From IMG/VR virus record IMGVR_UViG_2615840717_000004, positions 39,604 through 103,603 of that record: a DNA stretch of 64,000 nt; one strand, written 5' to 3'. The notes under the pieces were generated by a model. It saw only the letters and a list, made by a program, of their open reading frames with translations. It made no database searches and was not told the origin of the DNA. Of the stretch, positions 3 to 2,306 are shown one piece after another. The translations under genes and the position numbers were made by a program. Within the stretch, counting starts at the first letter, position 1. Every line of letters starts with the position of its first letter. This DNA is from a virus (taxonomy: Duplodnaviria > Caudoviricetes).

Positions 3-1346
3 GTCGACTTTGTCACCCCCCATGCCGTAGAAACGGACTTTACAGACGCAGAGTTTGATAGAAGCACATTCAAAGTTCTGACAATGCGCAGCGCCACTTT
101 TTTTCGAAGTAAACATCACCGAACTGAGTTTACAGACAATGATTTTGAAGACGTGCTTTTCAAGAATAGTGAACTGACGAAATGTAGTTTTGAAAATGTG
201 AAATTCGCAAAGTGCAACTTGGTGCAGTGCGAAGCTTTCGAAAGCAACTTTAGTGGTTCGGAAGCCGTGAATACAGACTTTGAAGGTTGCAGACTTCACC
301 AAACCACTTGGTACAAAACTGTCTATGATGAGTGTAATTTCGCTAAAGCACGCTTCGGAGCAGCCCAACTCATCAACGCTAAGTTTTATCATTCTATTTT
401 CGATGACGCTCAGTTCGCGAAAGCGACAATAACTGGTGGGCATTTCAAGTACGGCAGAGCCCTTTCTGCAAACTTTCAAGCTGCAACAATCTCTGACTGC
501 GACTTCGTTCAAGTTGACCTCAGAGGTGCTAACTTCACGAAAGCAGAAATCGACAACGTTCACTTTGGTGGTTGTGATCTGAGAGGAGCGAACTTTGTTG
601 GAACTGGTATCTGGGGACCGGAGCAATTGCCAGGAGCAAGGGTTGACGAGACAACGATATTCCAAGCAAGACCTCAAGATAGTTTGAAAGAGGCTCCGTC
701 GAAAGATGAAGTAACAGAGAGCGCCATTTTCTCTGCAGACAATCCAAACGCTCTCGATCTCAGCGAAGTCAGTGCCAGTCAACCACTTAAAACAGACAAA
801 GGAACCCTTGATCACCATCAGGTTATGAGCGTCAACACCCCTGTCTATTTTACCAAGGCAGACGGAACAGACACTCAAATTACTCTTGCTAGTATCGCGA
901 TCGCCATGCGCGGGAAGCAGAATGCTATCCCTGAAATATTTGAGAGAGTGATCAAAGCCGCAGAAAACGGCGAAGACATTCGTTTCAAAGACAAAGAAGA
1001 AGAGTGGCTTGAACTTCTTACGGCTGACTGGATTGCACCTGAAGATAAAGAAGCCTGCTTTGAAGCAATTAGAAAAGCTATGACAGAAGAGCACGCAGCT
1101 CCGTACTTCGGCAGCTTGGAATGGTTGACGCCAGAAAATCTTGAAACAATACGTGAGGGCCTGCTTTTTTGCCAAGAACTTGGAAATGGAAATGTAGTGA
1201 TCGGTGCTTTTAAAGCTGGCGCTAGTGTTTTCTCTTTTGGCATCTTTCCGGTCGGACTTTACCATGTACATAAAATAATGGATGTCCTTACGAACAGGTT
1301 TGCAGCTGCAGATAGACAACGCGACAAAGAGCTGGAAGACAGCTAG
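3..1346 (+). CDS. Pentapeptide-repeat protein with helical C-terminal domain (5' end outside window)
   Basis: A(D/N)F/L pentapeptide repeats (e.g. DLRGANFTKAEI, DLRGANF); the frame is open upstream of ATG 84 to the window edge with further repeats (ETDFTDAEFDRSTF). Confidence 0.85.
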   Translation, partial: VDFVTPHAVETDFTDAEFDRSTFKVLTMRSATFFRSKHHRTEFTDNDFEDVLFKNSELTKCSFENVKFAKCNLVQCEAFESNFSGSEAVNTDFEGCRLHQTTWYKTVYDECNFAKARFGAAQLINAKFYHSIFDDAQFAKATITGGHFKYGRALSANFQAATISDCDFVQVDLRGANFTKAEIDNVHFGGCDLRGANFVGTGIWGPEQLPGARVDETTIFQARPQDSLKEAPSKDEVTESAIFSADNPNALDLSEVSASQPLKTDKGTLDHHQVMSVNTPVYFTKADGTDTQITLASIAIAMRGKQNAIPEIFERVIKAAENGEDIRFKDKEEEWLELLTADWIAPEDKEACFEAIRKAMTEEHAAPYFGSLEWLTPENLETIREGLLFCQELGNGNVVIGAFKAGASVFSFGIFPVGLYHVHKIMDVLTNRFAAADRQRDKELEDS

Positions 1347-2306
1347 ATGACTGCTTTGCCCCCTGCTCCACCGAGACCTTTCCGCTCTTACCTGCCAGGA
1401 CAGCTGCGTGGGTTTGGGTTTGTTTTTGCGGGTAATTTGTGGAGTTTGGGTGTCTATCTGATTTATCAGGGCAGCGCGCTGCGGGACTGGTTTCTGGCTG
1501 GGTTTCTCTGGATTGTTGGGGCGGTTATCGTTTACTGGCTGGCAACGCGGATTGAGCCCGTTTTCAGCCCGCTCAAAGCCCTGCTGGTCACCCTTTTCTT
1601 TCAGGTGCAGATGTTCGCCGCCATCGCCCTCATCCGCGTTAGCCTGGCGGATTTCGAGATTGAGGCCCTCAACCAGCTGAGCATCACCCAAATGGTTCTG
1701 GCCGTCTACATCCTCATGATCCCCATAACCCTCCTCACCGCTTTCATAAGCTGGGTGAGGCAGAGCAACGACTGAATTCTTTTCACTGGCGACAGACTGG
1801 ACACACCTCCACAAACTGAGCGACAGTTGCGCCATTGAAAACACTAGGAGTTCTTGAGCAAATTGATGGTTAAAACTAGTGTGCCCCAAAGCGACCAAAC
1901 CACCATCGAACCACCTCAAGTTCTGAGCAAAACTGCCCTTACAAAGAAGTACGTTGCTGTTATCGCCTTCATCATTGGTGGACGGAGTCTCTGGACACTT
2001 TATCCGAAGCTCTCTGGCCCGCTCACTGCACTTCAGTTGGTTATGATCATCGGCTGCTTGACTGCGATCGGCCTTGGTGCTTGGCTTTGGCCTAAGAAGC
2101 TCAATATCATCAACCTGCTTAGCCTGGTTATTCTGGTGAACGTTGGCTTGGCAGTCGTCGTCATAGCCTTTGGCGTTCCGCTCTTCTTCCTGACTTACTT
2201 TGAGCTCATTGATGAATGGGCCGTTGAACCCGTAACTCTGTATGGTCTGGTGATCACCAGCACTGCTGCCTATATGGTAATCAATATCTTTCGTGCGCCT
2301 TAGCAT
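3..2306 (-). CDS. Antisense shadow ORF, >=768 codons, open to window edge, covering three + strand cargo genes
   Basis: Read codon by codon: no TTA/CTA/TCA in the + frame from 3 to 2306. ATG 2306-2304 overlaps the TGA of 2306..3400 (TGATG), with GGAGGG RBS. Absent from the track, probably because no stop lies in the window. Confidence 0.7.
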   Translation of the reverse strand, partial: MLRRTKDIDYHIGSSAGDHQTIQSYGFNGPFINELKVSQEEERNAKGYDDDCQANVHQNNQAKQVDDIELLRPKPSTKADRSQAADDHNQLKCSERARELRIKCPETPSTNDEGDNSNVLLCKGSFAQNLRWFDGGLVALGHTSFNHQFAQELLVFSMAQLSLSLWRCVQSVASEKNSVVALPHPAYESGEEGYGDHEDVDGQNHLGDAQLVEGLNLEIRQANADEGDGGEHLHLKEKGDQQGFERAENGLNPRCQPVNDNRPNNPEKPSQKPVPQRAALINQIDTQTPQITRKNKPKPTQLSWQVRAERSRWSRGQSSHLAVFQLFVALSICSCKPVRKDIHYFMYMVKSDRKDAKRENTSASFKSTDHYISISKFLAKKQALTYCFKIFWRQPFQAAEVRSCVLFCHSFSNCFKAGFFIFRCNPVSRKKFKPLFFFVFETNVFAVFCGFDHSLKYFRDSILLPAHGDRDTSKSNLSVCSVCLGKIDRGVDAHNLMVIKGSFVCFKWLTGTDFAEIESVWIVCRENGALCYFIFRRSLFQTILRSCLEYRCLVNPCSWQLLRSPDTSSNKVRSSQITTTKVNVVDFCFREVSTSEVNLNEVAVRDCCSLKVCRKGSAVLEMPTSYCRFRELSVIENRMIKLSVDELGCSEACFSEITLIIDSFVPSGLVKSATFKVCIHGFRTTKVAFESFALHQVALCEFHIFKTTFRQFTILEKHVFKIIVCKLSSVMFTSKKSGAAHCQNFECASIKLCVCKVRFYGMGGDKVD
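1347..1775 (+). CDS. Multi-pass membrane protein (cargo)
   Basis: About four hydrophobic segments; starts immediately after upstream stop (TAG ATG). Confidence 0.75.
   Translation: MTALPPAPPRPFRSYLPGQLRGFGFVFAGNLWSLGVYLIYQGSALRDWFLAGFLWIVGAVIVYWLATRIEPVFSPLKALLVTLFFQVQMFAAIALIRVSLADFEIEALNQLSITQMVLAVYILMIPITLLTAFISWVRQSND
1854..2303 (+). CDS. Multi-pass membrane protein (cargo)
   Basis: About four hydrophobic segments; AGGAG RBS upstream. Confidence 0.75.
   Translation: MSKLMVKTSVPQSDQTTIEPPQVLSKTALTKKYVAVIAFIIGGRSLWTLYPKLSGPLTALQLVMIIGCLTAIGLGAWLWPKKLNIINLLSLVILVNVGLAVVVIAFGVPLFFLTYFELIDEWAVEPVTLYGLVITSTAAYMVINIFRAP

Follow-up and report, generated by a model that had tools for sequence, protein, structure and literature searches.

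The minus strand of a Pseudovibrio prophage contains a reading frame that runs without a stop codon opposite several genes of the plus strand, and this openness is under selection. The DNA analyzed here, referred to as the window, is a stretch of 64,000 nucleotides (nt) assigned to the Caudoviricetes (IMG/VR record IMGVR_UViG_2615840717_000004, positions 39,604 to 103,603), which corresponds to G000:C39:69175-133174 in a genome of 5.85 Mb with 51% GC. The element is a double-stranded DNA prophage within the Pseudovibrio chromosome; positions to the left of the window are given as negative numbers. The plus-strand genes are the real coding genes. The 1,088-codon minus frame, referred to below as the bridge open reading frame (bridge ORF), is best read not as a protein gene but as a probable read-through frame of the type known from the eta gene of phage P4, stretched over cargo genes that point backward, with coupled translation that would act against both Rho and C4 immunity.

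Extent and junctions of the bridge frame

In the genome, the stop-free minus frame extends from window position 2327 to -939 (1,089 codons). It is limited by the nearest stop to the right, at 2328, and by a terminal TGA at -942..-940 (G000:C39:68232), so that the bridge ORF has 1,082 codons when counted from ATG 2306, or 1,088 from TTG 2324. An earlier note on this DNA had claimed an open minus frame of at least 768 codons that leaves the window; the frame is free of stops from 3 to 2324, exits the window, and is larger than claimed. Within the bridge span, the terminal stop is the only one in the bridge frame, and the other two minus frames contain 47 and 79 stops. The genes and frames concerned are the following (aa, amino acids; HTH, helix-turn-helix).

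1..1346, plus strand, ATG at window -189: gene 1, pentapeptide-repeat protein, 511 aa, PF13599 (3.7e-23) and PF00805 (6.1e-21)
1347..1775, plus strand: gene 2, membrane protein TM1, 142 aa, the best conserved cargo gene, no TTA, CTA, or TCA codons
1866..2303, plus strand: gene 3, membrane protein TM2, 145 aa, open from TTG 1854, none of these codons
2420..3391, plus strand: gene 4, second pentapeptide-repeat protein, 323 aa, PF00805 (3.2e-13), none of these codons
3..2306, minus strand: visible part of the bridge ORF, which runs off the left edge to window -942
2304..2324, minus strand: coupling junction TGATG, with GGAGGG at 2322-2317, TGA at 2308-2306, and ATG at 2306-2304
2306..3400, minus strand: upstream bridge ORF, 364 codons, in register opposite gene 4
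3397..3915, minus strand: core early gene with an HTH_23 domain (Pfam PF13384, 2.1e-09)
3912..4406, minus strand: core early gene, CII-like regulator (Pfam PF06892; PHROG 101, 1.7e-13)
-3424..-1379 (L001:6576-8621), minus strand, off-window: 681-codon ORF over a second backward island, between the antirepressor gene ant and the primase gene

The early operon reads, along the minus strand, CII-like regulator, HTH gene, C4 RNA, a gene in the position of icd, ant, primase, and helicase. The stop of the CII-like gene and the start of the HTH gene overlap by 4 nt, and the HTH gene is the point from which coupled minus ORFs lead, in a chain, into the cargo. The upstream bridge ORF starts at GTG 3400, which overlaps the TGA of the HTH gene after AAGGAGGG. 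The main bridge ORF begins where the earlier note had placed its start, at an ATG that is preceded by GGAGGG and overlaps the TGA with which the previous minus ORF ends. This TGATG junction is kept in six loci, and three others have ATGCTAG after AAGGAGG; at all junctions examined in these nine loci, stop/start overlaps are accompanied by Shine-Dalgarno-like motifs. The junction motifs thus predict an upstream coupling of the bridge ORF of the kind found in P4 eta. At the other end, extension to the left, which the earlier note had proposed as a check, shows that the stop of the bridge ORF forms an ATGA overlap with the start of a minus-strand BRO-N/Ant antirepressor gene. Overlapping minus ORFs chain on downstream of it, over the second backward island, to the primase and a D5-type helicase.

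In agreement with the earlier note, the plus ORFs <1-1346, 1347-1775, and 1854-2303 lie in a common frame, separated by 0 and 78 nt, and TTA, CTA, and TCA are absent from all three. Gene 4 is in another plus frame, and its homologues in relatives are likewise pentapeptide proteins. The description of the minus frame as a hidden antisense ORF holds for most of its span and fails for its last 133 codons; because these are a real gene, the bridge ORF is not antisense throughout. Public annotation calls the plus genes and the 133-aa minus gene and does not call the long minus ORF.

Two minus ORFs were considered as ordinary core genes and rejected, the 364-aa one because it lies opposite the Pfam-supported pentapeptide gene, and the 681-aa one because it is junk-like, matches no family, and lies over two plus ORFs free of TTA, CTA, and TCA. 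The latter two, of 273 aa each, share a frame, with a 48-nt spacer and a G+C content at third codon positions (GC3) of 0.38-0.40. A PADLOC search finds no defense-system match among the six backward genes. No meaningful inverted repeats were found to flank the cargo, and the idea of an invertible segment was rejected for this reason.

Codon usage and variation among relatives

Among the Leu and Ser codons of the genome, TTA, CTA, and TCA are the rarest, making up 0.4%, 0.4%, and 0.9% of all codons, or 1.7% together. A naive calculation from genome-wide codon frequencies gives P = 6e-9 for the open frame. This value was set aside because runs of comparable length occur in host genes with strong codon bias (in-register antisense runs of up to 945 codons), and a GC3-matched null based on 650 genes of the same genome was used instead. 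The six plus genes located from window -3355 to 3391 comprise 1,673 codons, of which 255 encode Leu or Ser; ~42.7 TTA, CTA, or TCA codons are expected among them, and none is present (log10 P = -20.3). The GC3 of these genes is 0.38-0.56, except for 0.70 in TM1 (gene 1, with none of the three codons, has 0.42), and their codon-adaptation scores are low, 0.05-0.20. In low-GC3 genes of the genome, TTA, CTA, and TCA account for 18-25% of Leu and Ser codons.

The GC3-matched reference frequencies of TTA, CTA, and TCA are 0.089, 0.073, and 0.178, and all three are 0 in the cargo. No other A-ending codon falls below its reference frequency in the cargo, as seen for AGA (0.35 versus 0.12), ATA (0.20 versus 0.12), and CAA (0.68 versus 0.44). 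When the 4,931 predicted genes of the genome are ranked by how extreme the zero count is, cargo genes occupy five of the first 13 places, first place among them, and they are the only weakly biased genes there, the remainder carrying a strongly biased codon signature. The core minus genes contain 1-5 of the three codons each, and other backward AT-rich genes in the window contain 16-22. The in-register reverse frame is open beyond what composition accounts for, which is the property that marks the reverse frames of narnaviruses.

The residues encoded by this frame show no comparable constraint. Pfam and PHROG contain no family for the long minus ORF, the composition of which is junk-like and rich in Cys, Phe, Ser, and Lys. 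Between two closely related genomes (G027 and G037), gene 1 differs by 97, 61, and 153 substitutions at the first, second, and third codon positions of the sense frame; codons with a single change are synonymous in 80 cases and nonsynonymous in 58 on the sense strand, versus 26 and 112 on the antisense strand. The same direction is seen in every TM2 pair and every gene 4 pair, so that the purifying selection on antisense residues expected of an antisense gene is not found. The leader of C4 differs between relatives by indels of 2, 5, and 2 nt, which change the local frame and the residues, and both versions are open.

The tails of two bridge ORFs resemble SsrA tags. The upstream bridge ORF has the C terminus SSNDNWRAAA (window 2306-2342, minus strand), and the 681-codon ORF covering the second island has the tail SSNDNDPFWHSVNVERCAA (off-window ~-3424..-3365, L001:6576-6635); the host transfer-messenger RNA tag is ANDNYAMDNAVAA. 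The combination of NDN in the last 20 residues with a terminal AA occurs in 1 of the 4,931 predicted proteins. P. brasiliensis keeps the first tail, and Alg231-02 has a near match to it (SSNGNWRVAA). Such tails fit products that are marked for degradation. The main bridge ORF ends as the nested gene, without an SsrA-like tail.

Long antisense frames are found in all of the following relatives.

P. brasiliensis: antisense ORF of 905 aa
Pseudovibrio sp. Alg231-02: antisense ORF of 909 aa
P. denitrificans: two antisense ORFs of 513 and 368 aa, with a 4-nt overlap
Eight IMG/VR prophage contigs (L029-L036): open antisense frame of 851-1,726 codons

The cargo beneath these frames is highly diverged. 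Gene 1 falls into at least seven lineages at 41% amino-acid identity or less, and some of its forms have an N-terminal membrane segment; identity is 18-27% among gene 4 variants and 25-79% among TM2 paralogues. Inside the bridge, all variants of gene 1, gene 4, and TM2 lack TTA, CTA, and TCA, and the few such codons present in P. denitrificans lie outside the bridge ORFs.

Cassette gain occurs in frame, as the earlier note had expected. TM2 is present in 0-4 tandem copies with a pitch of 666 or 624 nt, both multiples of 3, and its insertion in the genome under study amounts to a net 513 nt, also a multiple of 3. A frame break does occur in P. denitrificans, where a net difference of 16 nt places the plus genes in two frames, and it is absorbed by a minus-strand TGATG stop-restart. 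Changes of frame between plus genes are matched by a minus-strand stop-restart, either TGATG (P. denitrificans and position 2306) or ATGCTAG (three loci). The spacers in L036, which are noncoding on the plus strand, span 270 codons with no stop in the bridge frame versus 19 and 12 in the others. Since these spacers are stop-free only in the bridge frame, a purely sense-codon explanation is excluded. Of the proposal that the region is a cassette array, the in-frame constraint is supported; the cargo itself is a conserved, hypervariable module of this phage group and not a set of random insertions. This backward module is reminiscent of exclusion or immunity cassettes. The TM2 arrays (L029-L036, ~6400-11000) consist of diverged copies, each with a remnant of the TM1 3' end ahead of it.

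The C4 immunity region and its surroundings

The layout of the left end was derived from an alignment of four genomes and is described along the minus strand. Inside the bridge ORF lies a sigma-70-like site, TTGACA-17-CATGAT (window -265..-293), which by consensus match only is the best site in 10 kb. It is followed by a structured leader that holds a C4 antisense RNA (RF01695, 55.2 bits against a gathering score of 45, E = 1.1e-9, window -491..-409, minus strand). The C4 RNA is also found in all ten other Pseudovibrio loci fetched, at 51-72 bits. Directly upstream of C4, within the stretch of leader indels, is a terminator-like hairpin followed by TTTTCT (L001:9594-9618, minus strand; window ~-406..-382).

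Two C4 loops are complementary to pairs of targets upstream and downstream of the RNA in 11 of the 11 loci. Relative to C4, the targets are at -65 and at +1/+34; a second upstream target near -45, present in some loci, is not detected in the genome under study. The downstream pair covers the Shine-Dalgarno sequence of the gene in the icd position, with the +34 target overlapping AAGGAG, 7 nt before the ATG. The target trinucleotide is TCT, TAC, CCT, AAC, or CGT, and its complement is found in C4 (L001:9459-9758, L016-L018, L021-L027). From this covariation, at least five immunity specificities are predicted among Pseudovibrio elements.

The nested gene of 133 codons starts at ATG -541 after AAGGAG, is well conserved, and forms the in-frame end of the bridge ORF. 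No similarity to Icd is detectable in its sequence, so it is assigned as icd by position only. It is followed by the BRO-N/Ant antirepressor gene (PHROG 130, 6.6e-49; Pfam PF02498, 1.3e-24). Judged from these sequence features, the left end has the architecture of the P1/P7 immI region (c4 RNA, icd, ant): C4 scores above the gathering threshold, target pairs lie on both sides of it, a small gene with a C4-covered ribosome site is coupled to the antirepressor gene, and the specificity types covary, as they do between P1 and P7. Unlike in P1, the antirepressor is of the BRO-N type here; in close relatives it is Rha-like, as judged from the N-terminal sequence only.

The passage of a frame through an internal promoter and the C4 RNA ties this region to the logic of P4 eta, and the same arrangement exists in a short form devoid of cargo. 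The start of these cargo-free frames lies ~50-60 codons ahead of C4, next to an upstream gene on the same strand. In G030, the frame through C4 begins 58 codons upstream of C4, and the ORF has a 4-nt overlap with the stop of an upstream ORF bearing a Pfam-supported Bac_DnaA_C domain; the cargo-free frame of G042 begins at the same distance, with ORFs arranged as in G030. The contig under study has a second C4 locus of the cargo-free form, ~37.5 kb to the left of the window (L050, C39:31625-31711). Its read-through ORF of 179 aa begins 51 codons upstream of C4, 3 nt past a same-strand gene of 746 aa, and is coupled to the next gene by a 4-nt overlap. A short cargo-free C4 read-through arrangement is also present in a genome of another genus.

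The overall C/G skew of the sequence is near zero. A second prophage in the window has a replication operon (GcrA-like gene, primase, DnaB helicase) with two minus-strand stretches that are open on both strands, 48817-49692 and 50729-51505. Three of their four ends show 4-nt overlaps, and their plus ORFs contain no TTA, CTA, or TCA and have no match in Pfam. Between the two phage elements lie a gene for an RTX/cadherin/FG-GAP repeat protein (9557-11677, minus strand) and one for an S1/P1 nuclease (12566-13360, plus strand), which are probably host or cargo genes.

Proposed read-through, its rivals, and its significance

The arrangement suggests the following course of events. In the lysogen, the four plus genes (first pentapeptide gene, TM1, TM2, and second pentapeptide gene) are presumably driven by a promoter of their own. 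When the early promoter fires, ribosomes would pass from the HTH gene to the upstream bridge ORF via the GTGA overlap, and from there to the main bridge ORF via TGATG. They would next traverse the cargo in antisense, followed by the internal promoter of C4, the RNA itself, and its target sites, enter the nested 133-codon gene, and be handed to ant by the ATGA overlap. Translation of the early transcript could in this way continue over 4.3 kb of antisense cargo and carry on through the C4 switch. With a ribosome kept behind RNA polymerase, Rho, which the host genome encodes, would be unable to load on antisense RNA that, over 3-5 kb, would otherwise go untranslated. Read-through would also free the expression of ant from the icd ribosome site that the C4 RNA blocks. 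The sequences show selection on the openness of the frame, the makeup of its junctions, and the C4 architecture; that ribosomes translate the bridge frame and that this read-through overrides C4 immunity are conclusions that we infer.

Part of this scheme has a close precedent. PMC10111431, citing Forti et al. 1999 (J Bacteriol 181:5225), describes P4 eta as starting upstream of an internal constitutive promoter, containing the CI RNA, and having kil nested in its final part; eta is coupled to the gene that lies upstream, and by being translated it prevents termination, which allows read-through into the downstream genes. The bridge ORF likewise starts upstream of an internal promoter, with an immunity RNA inside and a short gene nested in frame at its 3' end. 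The RNA is CI in P4 and belongs to the C4 family here, both in Rfam clan CL00128, and the cargo-free C4 loci look just like P4 eta. The whole eta gene of P4 is, as far as is known, sense-only. In contrast, ~850 to 1,500 codons here are antisense to 3-6 real backward genes with purged synonymous codons, and the bridge ORF is chained to a second bridge ORF. Sequence homology to Eta or Kil was not found. For P1, Biere, Citron, and Schuster reportedly concluded in 1992 that C4 blocks the translation of icd and that Rho then terminates transcription before ant; a long read-through frame upstream is, to our knowledge, not reported for P1.

The other precedent is the ambigrammatic narnaviruses, in which, according to PMC6884476, PMC8316113, and PMC8155312, a reverse ORF opposite the RNA-dependent RNA polymerase (RdRp) gene stays free of stops by avoidance of UUA, CUA, and UCA; its sequence is not conserved as a protein, and its translation, not its product, is thought to matter. 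The bridge frame shares the in-register reverse reading, the avoidance of TTA, CTA, and TCA, and the unconserved reverse residues. Narnaviruses, however, have RNA genomes of ~3 kb, infect eukaryotes, and contain a single forward gene, that for RdRp, whereas the element described here is an alphaproteobacterial double-stranded DNA prophage. Its bridge frame covers several genes together with their spacers, a promoter, and an RNA gene; both ends of the frame are coupled to neighbors, and its last stretch is a real gene. Having neither an RNA genome nor a single RdRp gene, the bridge frame is an analogue of the narnavirus reverse ORF and not a member of that class. Antisense overlapping genes proposed in Escherichia coli and Pseudomonas (PMC5960689, PMC9927249) are also long ORFs opposite annotated genes, but they are proposed to encode proteins and are usually embedded in one gene, and in the bridge frame only openness is conserved, with no purifying selection on residues. 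The principle thus has precedents in P4 eta and narnaviruses, and the latter are the nearest analogue. A limited literature search found no description of a DNA phage that keeps a frame open over several backward genes, which is weak evidence of novelty.

Several observations weigh against the proposed read-through. The spacing of 10 nt between the Shine-Dalgarno motif and ATG 2306 is rather long, and ~106 nt separate the stop of the HTH gene from the first bridge ORF start in P. denitrificans. In four of the 11 Pseudovibrio C4 loci, no frame that passes through C4 is open. As the C4 module has its own promoter, ant would not depend strictly on read-through. For Rho as the threat to the early transcript, the precedents of P1 and P4 are the only guide, and this role can be proposed by analogy only. 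Finally, a plus-strand gene in the late operon of the neighboring prophage (35351-36331) has 16 antisense stops and is unbridged; not every backward gene, therefore, needs to be bridged. This gene encodes a protein of 326 aa without a family match and lies between those for a lambda-type portal (36318-37943) and a ClpP-like protease (34135-35160).

The openness and the coupling would apply equally if the frame were translated and kept open for reasons other than Rho polarity or C4 override, such as protection of the antisense RNA from RNase E, unwinding of duplexes with the cargo mRNA that RNase III would cut, or shut-down of the cargo genes in the lytic cycle. Sense and antisense transcripts of the same 3-5 kb stretch would be fully complementary, and the narnavirus reverse ORF is thought, according to PMC8155312 and PMC8316113, to act by ribosome occupancy and not through a protein. 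Such roles nevertheless leave unexplained why the frame continues through the C4 promoter, RNA, targets, and nested gene and why cargo-free loci have a short read-through frame; with the P4 eta precedent pointing to termination control, we regard them as unlikely. A functional protein from the long minus ORF, that is, dual coding on opposite strands, is distinctly improbable. The start codon does follow a Shine-Dalgarno-like motif, the ORF is kept in every relative, the 133 residues at its C terminus correspond to a real protein present in annotation, and full-length Eta is a product in P4 according to PMC10111431. Yet the ORF has no family match, its single-codon changes are mostly nonsynonymous (112 versus 26), its sequence tracks cargo that is only 18-41% identical between relatives, its length changes with the number of cassettes (851 to 1,726 codons), its residues are altered by leader frameshifts, and its composition is not protein-like.

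The remaining explanations place the cause on the sense strand or in chance. If cargo mRNAs avoided UUA, CUA, and UCA on account of a sense-strand constraint, for example a codon-specific nuclease or the supply of tRNAs, openness of the antisense frame would be a by-product, and it is true that these are the rarest Leu and Ser codons and that highly expressed host genes also lack them. This is very improbable for cargo genes that are poorly adapted and use AGA, ATA, and GGA more often than matched genes do, given noncoding spacers that are stop-free in the bridge frame only, adjacent plus genes that either share a frame or are matched by minus-strand stop-restart joints, and the 16-22 such codons in the other backward AT-rich genes of the window. 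As for a shadow ORF produced by chance or ordinary codon bias, as is common in GC-rich genomes, in-register antisense frames are indeed the least stop-rich, and single-gene runs here reach 945 codons. Those runs, however, sit in strongly biased genes, in contrast to the GC3 of 0.38-0.56 in five of the six cargo genes; with the log10 P of -20.3 from this genome alone and a pattern that recurs in many diverged lineages, this explanation is hardly tenable.

The P4 eta-type read-through frame thus remains the preferred explanation of the bridge ORF. A broader proposition, to which we give even chances, is that temperate phages carry "ambigrammatic" accessory modules, in which backward lysogen genes are recoded into a translatable but meaningless bridge, chained by stop-restarts, that carries coupled ribosomes, and with them transcription resistant to Rho and insensitive to immunity, over kilobases of antisense DNA and permits only in-frame gain and loss of cassettes. 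If so, translatability of the opposite strand would dictate synonymous codon choice in real genes over >5 kb and many genes, a constraint overlooked by annotation pipelines and codon-usage models. The bridge would represent a protein-free alternative to antitermination of the N, Q, or Psu type for crossing foreign or backward DNA. It would account for the presence of backward accessory (moron, exclusion, and defense-like) modules in an essential operon without polarity, as well as for cassette gain and loss in multiples of three. Bridge frames are a trap for gene callers, yet they may also serve as a searchable signature of hidden operon continuity, and they would extend the principle of P4 eta and the narnavirus "ambigram" idea to DNA phages.

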